DNA of 64,000 nucleotides from Pseudomonadota bacterium (GTDB lineage: Bacteria > Pseudomonadota > Alphaproteobacteria > UBA2136 > JAPKEQ01): contig JAYZXF010000017.1 of assembly GCA_036141575.1 (NCBI GenBank), forward strand, positions 78,077 to 142,076, in the 5' to 3' direction. Positions 8,770 through 45,527 of the stretch are shown piece after piece. Position numbers and translations under genes: made by a program. Within the stretch, counting starts at the first letter, position 1. Each line of letters starts with the position of its first letter. The notes beneath the pieces were generated by a model. That model searched no databases and had not been told where the DNA came from. It saw nothing but the letters and a program-made list of their open reading frames with translations.

Positions 8770-9582
8770 ATGAGACACACAGTATGGATTGCGTCGTTGG
8801 CGCTTTTGTGTGCAGTAAATGCGCAAGCTTCAGAAGGAATTGCAAGGCAAATTCAGTCTCTTAAAACAGCAATGGATGGGTTTGCAGCAACTGCAAGAGC
8901 GCAAATTGCGTCCAATACAGCGAGTATTACTGAAAACGTAAGAATTATTGACTCTTTTGAGACCTGTGCTGAAAGCGGGATGATGTATGCCCCTGATGAT
9001 GTGACAGCGAATGCAGATGGCTGTAAGCGCGTCACCTCAACACAAGCGCTCAATGAAATTGATGTGTCAAGCCAGCTTGTGGCAACAGGCCGGTGGCTAC
9101 ACCCTTATAACTTTAGTGAGCATTCATCAAATGGGTCTCCATCAAAACGTGGCCGTTCTTATGCGCAGATTTATCGTATTAATGATCCTGATAATTATAA
9201 CAACTACCTGATTTCTGGTAATCTTTTTGGTGGTGGTAGTCGTTCTCATGATGAGGGTCAGTTCAGTTGTTGGAATGCTAATACTTATGTAAAGATTGGT
9301 AGTGGTTGGGTTTCTACAAACGGTGATTCTATTAAAATTGAACAGCTTGCCAATGTGTCTAAAACGCGTGTGGCAGGCCATGTTTATAATGGCACATTCC
9401 AAAACCAAATTGCGATTGTAAAGCGTACATCTCATAGCTGTTATAATAACGGAGGGGATTTAAATATGGGAATGAAGGTTAATTACATTACGTATCACAA
9501 TGGTATGAATGCACGTGCATCTTATCATGATAGTGACTCGCGAGCTTCAACACTGCGTGTGACAAACATTATTGGTTTTTAA
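8770..9582 (+). CDS. secreted coiled-coil protein, 'EGxxRQxxSLK' family (F1)
   Basis: Signal peptide ...AVNAQA, then 'SEGIARQIQSLKTAMDGF', a Cys loop 'CAESGMMYAP...DGC', and a C-terminal domain paralogous to 12170-13015. Confidence 0.75.
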   Translation: MRHTVWIASLALLCAVNAQASEGIARQIQSLKTAMDGFAATARAQIASNTASITENVRIIDSFETCAESGMMYAPDDVTANADGCKRVTSTQALNEIDVSSQLVATGRWLHPYNFSEHSSNGSPSKRGRSYAQIYRINDPDNYNNYLISGNLFGGGSRSHDEGQFSCWNANTYVKIGSGWVSTNGDSIKIEQLANVSKTRVAGHVYNGTFQNQIAIVKRTSHSCYNNGGDLNMGMKVNYITYHNGMNARASYHDSDSRASTLRVTNIIGF

Positions 9583-11998: not shown

Positions 11999-12169
11999 GT
12001 GTTTTCTCCTTAAAATGTACGAAAGATTACAGTAGTGATGAAATTGTGATCATCCCTTTAATGAAATTCAAGGTTTTGGGTGTTTTTTTTAGGAGATATG
12101 AGCTTGTGTGTTAACCTATAAGAGAAAGCAGGGTTATAAAAAAGAGGGGTCCCTTACAAAGTGAGGCAT

Positions 12170-13015
12170 ATGCTTAAAGTATCAGCATTAACTGCTGTGT
12201 GTGTGATTGGAATCGTGAATTATGTGCAAGCGAGTGAAGGAATTGCTCGTCAAGTACAAGCCTTAAAGTCCTCTATGGATAGTTTTGCTGCGACTGCTCG
12301 TGCTCAGCTTGCTGCTCAGGCGGTAAGCATTACAGAGAATGTACGTATGATTGACGCTTTTAAAACCTGTGCAGATAAAAACATGCTGTATACGCCTGAA
12401 AATCAGGCGGCAGATGTGGATGGCTGTTCTGCGATGTCTGGCTCTGGGGAAGTAAATGAAATTGATATGGCAACAGAGGTTGTGCCAACAAACCAATATT
12501 TTAATGTGGAACATGGCAGGGAGCAAACTGGAGGCGGTGGAGTAACTCGTGGCTCTCCTGCACGTATCTATCAGATTAATGACTCTGGAAATTATCAAAC
12601 ATATCAAGTTGTCGGTAATATCCGAGGCTGGGGTTGGCAATGGGATGATGAAGATCATGCTTATGACCATTGTTATGCTTATCAGCCTTATGTGAAAATT
12701 GGCGGGAGATGGCATGTCTCTGACTCTGATACTGTGACAATCCGTACTGTTGCAAACCAAAATAAAACCATTCTAAATGGCCGTATGGTGAATGGAAGTT
12801 TTGATAAAAGAATAGCTGTTGCTAAAGGAACAGCTTTCAGATGTGGTCGTCGTGGGGATACAAATGCTTTATATCAGATTTTTAATGATATGCGTAAGAG
12901 CCATGTGACTTGGTCTGATGCTTTAGCTTCTGGTCAAAGGGCTTGTTCTCATCATGACCCTCTTAATTGCAGAAATAGTGCATCGCTTGGTATACACTAT
13001 ATTGTTGGCTATTAA
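12170..13015 (+). CDS. secreted coiled-coil protein, 'EGxxRQxxSLK' family (F2)
   Basis: ATG at 12170 with GAGG upstream (the ORF track starts at GTG 12161). Signal peptide, 'SEGIARQVQALKSSMDSF', Cys loop 'CADKNMLYTP...DGC'. Full-length paralog of 8770-9582. Confidence 0.75.
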   Translation: MLKVSALTAVCVIGIVNYVQASEGIARQVQALKSSMDSFAATARAQLAAQAVSITENVRMIDAFKTCADKNMLYTPENQAADVDGCSAMSGSGEVNEIDMATEVVPTNQYFNVEHGREQTGGGGVTRGSPARIYQINDSGNYQTYQVVGNIRGWGWQWDDEDHAYDHCYAYQPYVKIGGRWHVSDSDTVTIRTVANQNKTILNGRMVNGSFDKRIAVAKGTAFRCGRRGDTNALYQIFNDMRKSHVTWSDALASGQRACSHHDPLNCRNSASLGIHYIVGY

Positions 13016-40624: not shown

Positions 40625-41143
40625 ATGGGAGAAACTTTAGGCTATATATCACTTATCCTTTATGTAGTCGCATTATTATTTCATAAGCCACGCCATAGCT
40701 TTATTTGCTTTATTATCGCGAATCTCTTCTTTATTGCACAATGTATTGTTTCAGAAATGTATGTTGCAGTTATGGGACCTATTGGGCTAACAGCTCTTAC
40801 TGTCTTTATTTTAAATGTTAAGAAGAAAAATTGGACTGCTTATGTAAAAGGTTATGCAACTTTTACTGTATGTGTTGGGGTGTATTTTGCGTCTAGTGTA
40901 AGTGAGTATATTGTTGTAAGTGCTATGTGTATAGATGCTCTATCTCGCCTAGGTAGAGACCATTTTTACCTATTTAGAACCTTGTCTTCTTTAGGAAATA
41001 TACTATGGTTTACATCTTTTTACATAGAGGGAGTAACTTCTATTATGTTGATGAGCGCTTTGATGGTTTCTTTAAATGTGATTTATATGGTCAGACATGC
41101 GTTGAGAGATGAGGTGCTCTTTAAGCAAAAGGTAAATGAATAA
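40625..41143 (+). CDS. polytopic membrane protein in an AT-rich segment
   Basis: Five hydrophobic helices. 60-nt lines hand-counted at 27-37% GC. Confidence 0.55.
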   Translation: MGETLGYISLILYVVALLFHKPRHSFICFIIANLFFIAQCIVSEMYVAVMGPIGLTALTVFILNVKKKNWTAYVKGYATFTVCVGVYFASSVSEYIVVSAMCIDALSRLGRDHFYLFRTLSSLGNILWFTSFYIEGVTSIMLMSALMVSLNVIYMVRHALRDEVLFKQKVNE

Positions 41144-41268: not shown

Positions 41269-42108
41269 ATGAGGTTATTTGCAATTGTATGTATGTGTTG
41301 CGCACTGTTTGTCAGTGTGGCAGCCGTTTCTCAAACACGTGCAGGTGAAGGACTTTCACGCCAACTTCAATCTGTAAAATCAATGCTTGAGAGTTTCCGT
41401 AGCCATATAGATGGTGAAATCGCTCGTGTGGATAGTGAAATTAATACAGTGGATAGCAGAGTAGATGCTGCAAATACTAGAATGGATACCATGGACGGTC
41501 GTATGGATGGTATAGACACTCAGATTGGTGGCCTAAACTCGAGTATTAATTCACACGATAACCGTATTACAGCCCTAGAAAATGGGGAAACAGGTGTGCA
41601 AGTTTACAGAAACTGTGCACAACGTAATGTGACATGGGGCAGTGGAAATTGCCGAGGTACGCAGGGGCCCATTCCTCATGGCACAAGTATAACGGTTAGA
41701 GACACCGTTCAAGGTGATATTTGTACAAATAGATATCAATATGTTGGCTATGCTGTGTATAGTTGTAATGATGGTGTGGTAACGCGTAACGGGCAAGCTT
41801 GTCAGCGAACAGATTTCTACAATGAAAATCTATGTGAATCTGGCAGTGGTGGCGATAGCTATGCAAACTGTCAAGGTACAACAAGGACATGGTCAGAAAC
41901 GTATAATGGTCTAACTTCAACCTGTTCTGGATCAATTGGTTCTGTGCCACATGGTACAACCGCTACAGCAACAGACCCTAGAACTGGTTGTGACCGTCGA
42001 GACTTCACAGGTGGATCATCGACTTGGCTATGTGATAATGGTACTCTCAGAAGACAAGGTACTGCAACATGTAGAACCTGGGGCAGCTGGGGTAGCGACT
42101 GTCGATAA
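41269..42108 (+). CDS. secreted coiled-coil family member with 2 x 4-Cys modules (F3)
   Basis: Signal peptide, 'GEGLSRQLQSVKSMLESF', an Lpp-like repeat 'VDSEINTVDSRVDAANTRMDTMDGRMD', and Cys modules at 41614-41802 and 41869-42072. Ends in 'DCR'. Confidence 0.75.
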   Translation: MRLFAIVCMCCALFVSVAAVSQTRAGEGLSRQLQSVKSMLESFRSHIDGEIARVDSEINTVDSRVDAANTRMDTMDGRMDGIDTQIGGLNSSINSHDNRITALENGETGVQVYRNCAQRNVTWGSGNCRGTQGPIPHGTSITVRDTVQGDICTNRYQYVGYAVYSCNDGVVTRNGQACQRTDFYNENLCESGSGGDSYANCQGTTRTWSETYNGLTSTCSGSIGSVPHGTTATATDPRTGCDRRDFTGGSSTWLCDNGTLRRQGTATCRTWGSWGSDCR

Positions 42109-42288
42109 TTGAATAAATGAAAGCAGAAAAGGAGGGCACATGCCCTCCTTTTTGCAACAGGGGATATATTTATTTTTCTTGAAGTATCAATGTATTGCAA
42201 TTTTTACTCACCTATTTGTCAGGGATATGTTTATTTAAAGTTGTGGTTATATATATAAATAAAATGTGATTTATAAAAGGGGTTTAAA

Positions 42289-43374
42289 ATGAGAGCTTTT
42301 CCGATAGTAATGATTTTATCCTGTTTAGTTTTACTAACAGGCGTAGCTGGTGCGCAGAGCACGCGCTCTGGTGAAGGTATTGCAAGGCAGTTAATGTCTG
42401 TTAAAAGTATGATTGAAAATTTTGCTGATAACATCCGCACACGTGTGCAGACCGTTGAAAATGAAATGGATGCGGTAGAAACACGTATGGATACAGTGGA
42501 AGCTGATGTTGCAAGCGTACTTGCAACCGTTGCAACACATGAAACACGGTTGAGCTCGCATGATTCATCTCTATCTGGCCATGGTCGCCGTATTCGAGCA
42601 CTCGAAGAGCGCGAGCCAACAGGTGGTGGAGGTAGTACAGCACCAACACCAAGTGCGTGTAACGGTAGAAACATGTCATGGGGAGGGGGATGTAGTGCTT
42701 ATGTACAATCTCTACCTGATGGGGGTGCTGTCGTTCTGAGAGATCAAGTTGCTGGTGATGTATGTACAAATAGACAGCAGTATGTTGGTCAAGTTCGTGT
42801 GGCTTGTAACAATGGTCAAATTTCTACAAAGAACGCCTCTTGTGAGCTGAGAAACGTTTATAACGCAACTCAGTGTAGTGGTGGCACAACACCAACACCG
42901 AAGAAGAGATGTGCAGCAAAAGATGTGAGCTGGAAGAACAATGCTGGTACAGTCACATGTCGTGGTAGAATTGTTGCAGCTGATCATGATTCAACACGTC
43001 GTGTAACATTTGATAACAACAATACAAAACCTGGTGGAAAACGTATTACTGGTGCAGCAAACTTTATTTGTGACAACGGTGTGTTCAAACGTACATCTAA
43101 GAACTGTAAAGAAACTGTTAACCCTGAGCCTCCTAAGCCTTGTGCAGGCAAGTCTGTGAGTTGGACTAGTAATGGTGTTACATGTCGAGGAACTGTTTCG
43201 AATACGCCACATGGTTTAACTTCAAGTGTAACAGACCCTAACCGAACACGAGAGTGTGAGAACATTATAGATACAACAGGTAGCGCAAGCTTCAGGTGTA
43301 CAAATGGATCGTTCAAGAAGGTCTCTGGCTCTTGCAGGCAGGTACGGAGTCGTCGAACAGGTGACTGTCGATAA
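42289..43374 (+). CDS. secreted coiled-coil family member with 3 x 4-Cys modules (F4)
   Basis: Signal peptide, 'GEGIARQLMSVKSMIENF', a coiled coil, and three Cys modules between 42658 and 43335. Ends in 'DCR'. Confidence 0.75.
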   Translation: MRAFPIVMILSCLVLLTGVAGAQSTRSGEGIARQLMSVKSMIENFADNIRTRVQTVENEMDAVETRMDTVEADVASVLATVATHETRLSSHDSSLSGHGRRIRALEEREPTGGGGSTAPTPSACNGRNMSWGGGCSAYVQSLPDGGAVVLRDQVAGDVCTNRQQYVGQVRVACNNGQISTKNASCELRNVYNATQCSGGTTPTPKKRCAAKDVSWKNNAGTVTCRGRIVAADHDSTRRVTFDNNNTKPGGKRITGAANFICDNGVFKRTSKNCKETVNPEPPKPCAGKSVSWTSNGVTCRGTVSNTPHGLTSSVTDPNRTRECENIIDTTGSASFRCTNGSFKKVSGSCRQVRSRRTGDCR

Positions 43375-43434: not shown

Positions 43435-43992
43435 TTATTTACATGGATCTGATGAGTAAGAACAAACTGGATTAGAAATAACAAAGTCACCATTACGACA
43501 AGTTACTGTAGCAGAGCCTGAAATATGGTTACCACAACGTGGGCGTGGGTGGGTAACTGTTGCAGTATCACCTTCATTGGCACCCCATGCAGTACTTGTA
43601 CATGTTGGATTACCATAGGCACCAGTCCATTGCACAGGTCTGCTTGTACAGCCAGACACTGTTCCAGAGCTGCCTGTCATATCATCGTGGGAAACGCAGC
43701 CTCGTCCATCTGCATCTGGGTGTGTTGGCCAGTGAATGCTTGGATCACCAGATGTATTGATACATGCTGTTCGTTGGTTCTCTCGTGTTTCAAGATTTGT
43801 TACACTGTTTTCAACGTTTGTCATGCGGGGTCTCATATCATTTGCAAATGCTTCCATCATATTTTTAAGAGATGTAAGCTGTCTGCTGATACCTTCACTT
43901 GTACGTGTCTGTGCATCAGAGTTAGAAATAACGATGAGGGATGCTGTTGTGAGAATTGCCGTAAAAATGAGGCAAGATTTTTTCAAATTCAT
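43435..43992 (-). CDS. secreted coiled-coil family member with 1 x 4-Cys module (F5)
   Basis: Signal peptide, 'SEGISRQLTSLKNMMEAF', loop 'CINTSGDPSIHWPTHPDADGRGC', and one Cys module. Ends in 'DPCK'. Confidence 0.72.
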   Translation of the reverse strand: MNLKKSCLIFTAILTTASLIVISNSDAQTRTSEGISRQLTSLKNMMEAFANDMRPRMTNVENSVTNLETRENQRTACINTSGDPSIHWPTHPDADGRGCVSHDDMTGSSGTVSGCTSRPVQWTGAYGNPTCTSTAWGANEGDTATVTHPRPRCGNHISGSATVTCRNGDFVISNPVCSYSSDPCK

Positions 43993-44104: not shown

Positions 44105-45106
44105 TTATTGAGGTTCACCATTATGCTCTTTAGAGAGTGGGTATTTTCCTTTTTTGTCTGGAATAGAGCCGTGGACAAGAATACCGTTTGCATAGTAAGT
44201 GTGGTCACCATCTAGCATAAGGTTGTAGAGGCGGCGGTCTTCTTCTTCCTGTGGGACAATCATGATGGATTCAATAAGCTGACGCTTGCCTTGTGCCATA
44301 ATGAGTGTTTGGCCAATTTCAAGCTGACCAATGTTACCAGAAAGTTGGTCGTAAGCTTCTTTCTCAGCCATATCTGGGTTAAGGGCCTTCCAGCCGTCTG
44401 TTGTCATAAGAGGGTGGTTATCTGTTGTAAAGGCAGTTTCACCGTTAATCTCAATAAGGTGCTGGTTTTTACCTTTGCGCAGAAGAGGGCGGTCAAGGTC
44501 TAGCACGGTGTTAATTGCACCGTCACGGCCCATCAGCTTATCACCAATTTTAACTTTATGAATTTCAAGGTCACTACCATCCGCCATAAGTACTTTTGTT
44601 TCAGCCGTAAAGCATGAGCCGCGGCAAACTGCTGCACAATTTTCCATACTATTAGGCGTTAGGTTTGTATTACAGCGGCAGGCACATCTCCACCCCACCC
44701 AAACTTGGTCGCTTGGGCATGTAGGAGGCGTGTAGGTGCCACCACCTGTTGGGCCTTCAATATCTGTATGTGTTACACAGTTATTGCTATCAGCATCTGG
44801 ATGGTTTGGCCAATACAGGCTTGTTGTTGATCTGTTATGGCAGAACGTTTGCCTATTAATAACTGTCTGGAGGTCTGAAATATCCGTTTGTGCTGTTGAG
44901 AGCTGTGTTTCTAGAGTGCTAATTCTAGAGCTCATGCCAGTAGACATGCTTTCCATCATGTTTTTAAGGGAGAGAACTTGCCTTGAAAGTGCTTCACCCG
45001 CACTTGTTTGTGCCCATACATTGGCAGCTAAAATGATTGTGCAAAGAGAGAGAAAGATTGCAATGGATTTAAGTATTTTACCCTTGAAAAACATAGTGGC
45101 CACCAT
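44105..45106 (-). CDS. secreted coiled-coil family member with C-terminal Hint/BIL domain (F6)
   Basis: 'AGEALSRQVLSLKNMMESM', loop 'CHNRSTTSLYWPNHPDADSNNC', then Hint blocks 'CFTAETKVLMADG', 'TTDNHPLMT' and 'HTYYANGILVHGS'. The start is at 45106 or 45094. Confidence 0.75.
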   Translation of the reverse strand: MVATMFFKGKILKSIAIFLSLCTIILAANVWAQTSAGEALSRQVLSLKNMMESMSTGMSSRISTLETQLSTAQTDISDLQTVINRQTFCHNRSTTSLYWPNHPDADSNNCVTHTDIEGPTGGGTYTPPTCPSDQVWVGWRCACRCNTNLTPNSMENCAAVCRGSCFTAETKVLMADGSDLEIHKVKIGDKLMGRDGAINTVLDLDRPLLRKGKNQHLIEINGETAFTTDNHPLMTTDGWKALNPDMAEKEAYDQLSGNIGQLEIGQTLIMAQGKRQLIESIMIVPQEEEDRRLYNLMLDGDHTYYANGILVHGSIPDKKGKYPLSKEHNGEPQ

Positions 45107-45197: not shown

Positions 45198-45527
45198 TTA
45201 CTTCTTGATACTGACAACAAGACTGTTTGTCGGTGCATCTTTAAGCTCTTCTTCAAGGACGATGTTTGTCTTGAGTTTGCCCTCAAGGATGTCGCGTAGC
45301 ACGATCAGGCGCTCAATAGATGTATTACGATCAGTATCATCAGGAAGGGCAACCATAAAGTAATCTGCTTTTTGCTCTTTTGCAGCCTTTAGGAATGCAC
45401 GCAGAGACTTTGCATCATCCTGTGCCACCCAGTGGTTGCTCTTTTGATATTGAAGCGTGTAAGACTCAGCAAAAGAAACAAAAGGAGCCAGCACCAGAAC
45501 AGTCAGTAAAGTGAATGTACGTTTCAT
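45198..45527 (-). CDS. small secreted protein (109 aa)
   Basis: Signal peptide 'MKRTFTLLTVLVLAPFVSFA'. Confidence 0.55.
   Translation of the reverse strand: MKRTFTLLTVLVLAPFVSFAESYTLQYQKSNHWVAQDDAKSLRAFLKAAKEQKADYFMVALPDDTDRNTSIERLIVLRDILEGKLKTNIVLEEELKDAPTNSLVVSIKK

Follow-up and report, generated by a model that had tools for sequence, protein, structure and literature searches.

An uncatalogued, sushi-like cysteine-rich repeat domain in secreted proteins of an alphaproteobacterial gene cluster

The cysteine-rich module encoded in tandem within a small gene cluster of an alphaproteobacterial genome proves to be a real domain: a sushi-like, extracytoplasmic repeat that is so far uncatalogued. 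The DNA analysed, hereafter the window, is a 64,000-nucleotide stretch of a metagenome-assembled genome (MAG) deposited at NCBI as "Pseudomonadota bacterium" (locus tags VX730_08120-08145), in which the four adjacent genes F3, F4, F5 and F6 encode paralogous secreted proteins (Table 1). We hold it to be reasonably probable that the modules are sushi-like extracytoplasmic beads on leader-coiled-coil proteins, and that their C-[RK] ending is both the end of the fold and the point of fusion to a Hint domain.

All four proteins start with an AxA/Q-type signal peptide (a slash marks a cleavage site or junction), followed by a leader of consensus Q-[ST]-R-x-[GS]E[GA]-x-[SA]RQ-x3-K-x-M-x-E and a heptad-rich helix; AlphaFold models residues 2-104 of F3 as one helix (pLDDT ~90). 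Beyond the leader, F3 has a long helix and two modules, F4 a coiled coil and three modules, and F5 a short helix, a two-Cys "WPxHP" mini-loop and a single module, while F6 passes through a coiled coil, a mini-loop and a degenerate Cys-rich segment to a Hint domain and a conserved 20-aa tail. The mini-loop, C-x-N-x4-S-[IL]-[YH]-W-P-x-H-P-x-A-[DN]-x3-C, is common to F5, F6 and the related proteins P0060, P0095, P0105 and P0118, and is missing from F3 and F4. The GenBank model of F4 (MEC9292353.1, 326 aa) begins at Met36, leaving out the signal peptide and GEG leader (42289-42393), and this start is probably mis-called, since orthologs conserve both elements.

The cluster lies in a housekeeping gene context free of prophage: it is bordered by PpiD and a conserved secreted protein of 110 aa at one end and by an Hsp70-like gene at the other. 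These flanks are kept in four lineages, where the number of paralogs ranges from 2 to 5. The small secreted protein (109 aa in the window) adjoins PpiD in all syntenic loci examined, its versions in the window and in a sister MAG (L001) sharing 96% identity. A 172-aa multi-pass membrane protein on the opposite side of the cluster is only 55% identical between these two genomes and missing in one syntenic lineage; neither protein has a Pfam match.

Table 1. Coordinates of genes and features in the window
Feature	Position	Strand	Description
Leader paralog	8770..9582	+	SEGIARQ at 8830-8850; different ~170-aa head, without Cys module
Second leader paralog	12161..13015	+	SEGIARQ at 12233-12253; 38% identical to the 8770-9582 protein
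Membrane protein	40625-41143	+	172 aa, multi-pass
F3	41269..42108	+	279 aa; MEC9292352.1, "hypothetical"; ends ...SDCR
F3 leader motif	41344-41364	+	GEGLSRQ
F3 module 1	41614..41835	+	aa 116-189, six Cys
F3 module 2	41869..42105	+	aa 201-278 plus terminal Arg279, six Cys
F4	42289..43374	+	361 aa; MEC9292353.1, "hypothetical"; ends ...GDCR
F4 leader motif	42370-42390	+	GEGIARQ
F4 module 1	42658..42876	+	aa 124-196, six Cys
F4 module 2	42910..43107	+	aa 208-273, core four-Cys form without C3 and C6
F4 module 3	43141..43371	+	aa 285-360 plus terminal Arg361, six Cys; copy modelled by AlphaFold
F5	43435..43992	-	185 aa; "hypothetical"; ends ...DPCK
F5 module	43438..43650	-	aa 115-184
F5 mini-loop	43696-43764	-	two-Cys WPxHP
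F5 leader motif	43879-43899	-	SEGISRQ
F6	44105..45106	-	333 aa; MEC9292355.1, "Hint domain-containing protein"
F6 tail	44108-44167	-	20 aa, conserved
F6 Hint domain	44168-44614	-	Cys165-Gly313; Pfam Hom_end_hint, TIGRFAM intein_Cterm
F6 degenerate segment	44615-44719	-	Cys-rich; ends C161-R-G-S164
F6 mini-loop	44777-44842	-	WPxHP
F6 leader motif	44978-44998	-	GEALSRQ
Secreted protein	45198-45527	-	109 aa

The initial annotation had reported six copies of a four-Cys module in F3, F4 and F5, together with the endings SDCR, GDCR and DPCK; the copies, at the positions first given, and the endings are both confirmed. The core of ~57-60 aa reads C1-x6-W...C2...[H]G...V-x-[DN]...G-S-A-x-[FY]-x-C4-x-[ND]-G-x-[LWF]-x6-8-C5. 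The consensus first proposed captures a real pattern but is a little too strict at three copies, as the [VMT] position is R in F3 copy 2, and [HD]G is replaced by HD in F4 copy 2 and by EG in F5. Similarly, C1, C2, C4 and C5 do form a universal four-Cys core, to which five of the six window copies add two further Cys, C3 between C2 and C4 and C6 10-12 residues past C5; the "terminal" Cys of the shared ending is C6 of the last module, followed by one basic residue. F6, the fourth member of the set, shares the leader, retains the beginning of a module in degenerate form (CPSDQVW) and reads ...VCRGS ahead of its Hint domain.

A profile built from the window copies and the F4 ortholog, searched against 1.84 billion representative proteins, matched 183 independent cluster representatives at E<=1e-3, far above chance, 62 at E<=1e-10 and 5 at E<=1e-30, with E-values down to 1e-55 against unrelated proteins. 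The clusters are at 50% identity and almost all metagenomic, and all those checked are annotated as hypothetical. A word-indexed homolog search returned only F4 and one ortholog with F4 as query, and nothing with the module alignment, a poor yield that we attribute to the tool's own limits, given the success of the exhaustive profile search. Local re-scanning of 151 module-bearing proteins gave 647 domain hits, 468 of them near full length (median 59 aa) and 358 of these with exactly four Cys, and the longest tandem array comprises 27 matched stretches in P0004 (2198 aa).

Extracytoplasmic signals are common in the family: in 126 of the 151 proteins the N-terminus includes a hydrophobic stretch resembling a signal peptide or a pilin, and at least 20 carry the prepilin motif G-F-T-L-x-E, confirmed by matches to TIGR02532 and GspG/H-like models. 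The window proteins, with their ordinary AxA/Q signal peptides, do not have the G/F-T-L-x-E of type IV pilins and pseudopilins. Other domains partnering the module are RCC1 repeats and PKD. The family appears to be bacterial, judging from its Sec and prepilin N-termini and with taxonomy known for a minority of the hits. One prepilin-type member with at least seven modules, the 889-aa P0009 (L008 8001-10670), has mobile-element and defence genes as neighbours, namely ArdC, a Hachiman-like HamA with a DEAD helicase, ParB and HTH_17.

In an alignment of 136 non-redundant copies, A6, conservation reaches 100% for C1, C2, C4 and one Gly, 99% for C5 and the Trp after C1, and at least 98% for the Gly of C-x-[ND]-G. 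The Cys spacing holds well beyond the window, across 136 diverse copies, and the median core of 59 aa with four invariant Cys is what a sushi domain of ~60 aa would show. None of the Pfam, NCBIfam and PHROG models covers it, be the query a window protein, a single copy or a protein with many copies. Foldseek searches of PDB and BFVD gave no significant solved or viral structure, and literature searches found no description of the family. The label "novel-looking", first given from the window copies, is therefore supported.

Modelling F4 module 3 with A6, AlphaFold predicted five beta strands, arranged as two hairpins and one more strand, at a pLDDT of 82. For F3, AlphaFold run on the single sequence gave no useful model of the modules. 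In the F4 module 3 model, C4 and C5 sit on the same hairpin but not in register to pair, which makes a bond between them improbable; pairing may instead run across the hairpins, the predicted pairs being C1-C4, C2-C5 and C3-C6. Sushi domains have the disulfide topology I-III and II-IV. Searching the A6 profile against all PDB sequences returned 23 matches at E<=10, of which 20 are CCP/sushi proteins, among them HpARI, with three CCP-like modules (E 2.3e-6), Factor XIII B (E 0.004) and Factor H (E 0.06), and the reversed profile of the same 136 sequences returned none at E<=10. The matching region, G-S-A-x-[FY]-x-C4-x-[ND]-G-x-[LWF]-x6-8-C5, is the Cys III-IV part of the sushi domain.

These matches, the empty reversed search and the three single copies of 136 with Pfam Sushi hits (all at E>=0.05) would also fit an ordinary Sushi/CCP member (PF00084) that the models simply missed, leaving nothing new. 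We consider this improbable, since the Pfam gathering threshold is not reached in the window proteins or in proteins with 7-27 modules, even with up to 27 copies to sum. Moreover, the invariant Trp lies after Cys I, the position equivalent to the sushi Trp holds L in 32%, W in just 23%, F in 21% and Y in 9% of copies, and the C-P-x-P start is absent. We conclude that the module is a divergent sushi/CCP-like domain that fails formal Pfam membership and differs in the hallmark Trp. Pfam SCPU, hit by 12 of the 136 single copies (best 7.6e-4), was rejected, as the hits do not recur in multi-module proteins; Csu-type structures are also absent from the PDB searches.

The variation in copy number among neighbours had been taken as a sign of recent module shuffling, and this does not hold. 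The module copies are just 26-49% identical at the protein level and no DNA repeat longer than 50 nt is present at the locus, so the duplications are old and recent duplication is rejected, while the same architectures persist in MAG GCA_035092205.1, whose orthologs are 84-89% identical. On a longer time scale the number of modules did change: P0003, a protein of the alphaproteobacterial MAG ANT-120, has four modules, of which the first and the fourth correspond to F3 modules 1 and 2 (61% and 63% identity, respectively). The genes are under purifying selection: dN/dS against the orthologs in GCA_035092205.1 is 0.09-0.17 (0.16 for F3), which rejects diversifying selection, and is 0.03 for both the flanking Hsp70-like gene and the 109-aa secreted protein gene. 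Besides, dS against the sister MAG L001 is 0.34 and 0.10 in the module parts of F3 (41614-42105) and F5 (43438-43650), much lower than the 1.1 and 0.68 of the respective leader-plus-stalk parts; codon constraint could account for the low module values, as could inter-lineage recombination or gene conversion. In the ANT-120 MAG (L007 6213-7394 and 7564-7944), the counterparts of the Hint paralog and of F5 occur as split or truncated reading frames, which could be assembly frameshifts or pseudogenes.

Modules of the leader family were compared across the window, two syntenic MAGs and the relatives P0003, P0060, P0095, P0105, P0118 and P0134. C3 and C6 are jointly present in 13 distinct modules, jointly absent in three and never found singly. 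The Cys count is even in all mature window proteins (12, 16, 8 and 8), the additional Cys of F6 being the Hint catalytic Cys165. On the strength of this co-occurrence and the even counts, we infer a C3-C6 disulfide that would pin the tail onto the domain, in a part of the model where the tail and C3-loop have a pLDDT of 61-74. All eight Hint-less members end in C-[RK]-stop (SDCR, GDCR, DPCK, SDCR, QHCR, GECR, GDCR and GDCR), the residue after an internal C6 is E, S or E, and the junction reads C-R-G-S/C-F-T-x-[DE]-T in each of the four paralogs with a Hint domain (F6, P0060 and two from MAG GCA_035092205.1).

The Hint domain of F6 matches Hom_end_hint at 4.2e-13, scoring 50.2 bits where the cutoff is 32.1, and intein_Cterm with 23.6 (cutoff 15.6), resembles inteins and matches the solved BIL domain 2LWY at 4e-4. 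Cys165 and TTDNH, the TxxH block, are invariant in the four paralogs, all of which have LVHG-S, with Gly for Asn, where a splicing intein has His-Asn and a Cys, Ser or Thr extein residue. Only a 20-aa tail, [IV]PDK-x-GKYPL-x2-EHNGE, kept in the four paralogs compared, follows the domain, with no cargo downstream. Because Cys1 and TxxH are retained and HG replaces HN, the domain should cleave at its N-terminus alone, a prediction based on the Hint chemistry reviewed in PMC7765530, and the predicted product ...CRGS should be nearly the same as the ends of the Hint-less proteins. Searches 3' of the F3, F4 and F5 stop codons found no Hint remnants; terminator-like hairpins are present there. In a neighbour-joining tree of the leader-to-mini-loop region, a short alignment without support values, Hint-bearing and Hint-less proteins interleave, which suggests that Hint has been repeatedly gained or lost at the same boundary. 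In the unrelated 310-aa protein P0170, a four-Cys module-like segment is directly fused to Hint (...SATC-PGVT/CFTAGTKV), and module-Hint pairing therefore recurs beyond this lineage.

The initial annotation had suggested that the terminal Cys-basic dipeptide is a processing or attachment signal, and part of this survives. A signal for enzymatic trimming, lipidation or covalent anchoring, on which Hint paralogs would converge through a thioester, could account for a C-[RK]-stop kept down to ~30% identity when internal C6 residues are followed by E or S, for the C-R ahead of every G-S/Cys-Hint junction, and for the interleaving of both protein types, with gain or loss at exactly that boundary. 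However, the Cys co-varies perfectly with C3 and keeps the Cys number even, as a disulfide partner would, and the chain stops one residue past it, without the hydrophobic or charged tail of a sorting signal, so that LPXTG, PEP-CTERM and GlyGly-CTERM do not fit. Among the genes of the syntenic loci, none is recognised by Pfam as sortase-, exosortase- or transpeptidase-like, and the junctions GRGT/C and PGVT/C of remoter Hint relatives show that C-R is no requirement of Hint. We therefore think an attachment signal unlikely; the idea is weakened for the Cys, best read as structural, and the terminus is still a conserved boundary abutting a putatively autoprocessing domain in paralogs.

A more elaborate version, for which we see a slightly smaller chance still, is a bacterial Hedgehog-like system in which the paralogs would co-assemble through leader and coiled coil, the thioester of an F6-type Hint would covalently attach the C-terminal ...C-R-G-S of the fibre to an envelope nucleophile, and the Hint-less C-[RK] end would be the matching element for recognition or docking. 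Independently of this, the module would represent a large bacterial branch of the sushi superfamily, used to build giant type-IV-pilin-like adhesins. Far less credible are Lpp-like tethers, periplasmic trimeric coiled coils with a C-terminal basic residue cross-linked to peptidoglycan: the long coiled coil with I/V-rich a/d positions, the C-terminal K or R, the adjoining gene for the periplasmic chaperone PpiD and the fact that Alphaproteobacteria are not known to have classical Lpp would suit them, but there is no lipobox and cleavage is of the AxA/Q type, seven of eight ends are Arg, without the epsilon-amine that the Lpp linkage uses, and Lpp has none of the bulky Cys-rich heads of 70-240 aa. 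Finally, a Cys/Ser/Thr-rich chance or low-complexity pattern, for which only the S/T/G/N-rich composition speaks, is refuted by the E-values to 1e-55, the empty reversed profile, the pLDDT of 82 and the purifying selection.

The leader and stalk are also found outside the cluster. Two further window proteins (Table 1) have the same signal peptide, leader motif and a two-Cys mini-loop, and their ~170-aa heads have no Pfam hit and are unrelated to the Cys module. Across these six window proteins, one leader-plus-stalk bears at least three kinds of head, which, by analogy with fibre proteins, supports a model of a common docking or stalk part with interchangeable heads. Sub-cutoff Pfam and PHROG matches to XhlA, Baculo_PEP_C, DUF1664 and a phage "adhesin" all fall within the coiled coil and were rejected. 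A scan of genome contigs for the leader motif produced 36 pattern matches, of which none was confirmed, and the Hint-paralog alignment found one syntenic MAG.

Returning to the sushi-like bead, the module would be a small, disulfide-stabilised all-beta domain that bacteria may use as a repeatable unit, for binding or as a spacer, in secreted fibres and adhesin-like proteins, many of them starting like type IV prepilins. The Sec-exported proteins of the alphaproteobacterial lineage studied here would have a variable head of one to four beads, borne on the shared leader and a long coiled-coil stalk. The lineage-specific C3-C6 pair would staple the C-terminal tail back, so that D-x-C-[RK] may be just the fold end, and the same end is the fusion point of Hint in paralogs (...C-R-G-S/C-Hint). 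A domain family missed by current protein-family libraries would let curators annotate hundreds of giant secreted or pilin-like proteins and, if the sushi link holds, would extend a fold regarded as typically animal to a broad range of bacterial surface proteins. The C-R/G-S/Cys-Hint junction offers a clean and testable example of a secreted bacterial protein that carries Hint at its C-terminus with no cargo downstream, in a Hedgehog arrangement.

Compared with sushi/CCP/SCR domains (PF00084; complement factor H, factor XIII B and HpARI modules), the module stays below the Pfam threshold everywhere, has its invariant Trp after Cys I rather than between Cys III and IV, shows a mid-module [H]G and V-x-[DN], has no CPxP start and, in the window lineage, carries the predicted extra C3-C6 pair. 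Among BIL and Hedgehog-type Hint domains (Amitai et al. 2003; Dassa et al. 2004; as reviewed in PMC7765530), B-type BILs appear to share with F6 the Cys1 nucleophile, the TxxH block, the missing C-terminal Asn and a variable secreted protein, and Hedgehog likewise places Hint at the C-terminus of a secreted passenger; unlike either, F6 has after its Hint only the 20-aa tail, and no toxin, extein or sterol-recognition region. Although phage tail fibres and collectin-like proteins have no sequence or fold relation to the window proteins, with PHROG hits confined to the coiled coil and no prophage context, they follow the same logic of an N-terminal docking part, a coiled-coil stalk and a variable C-terminal head.
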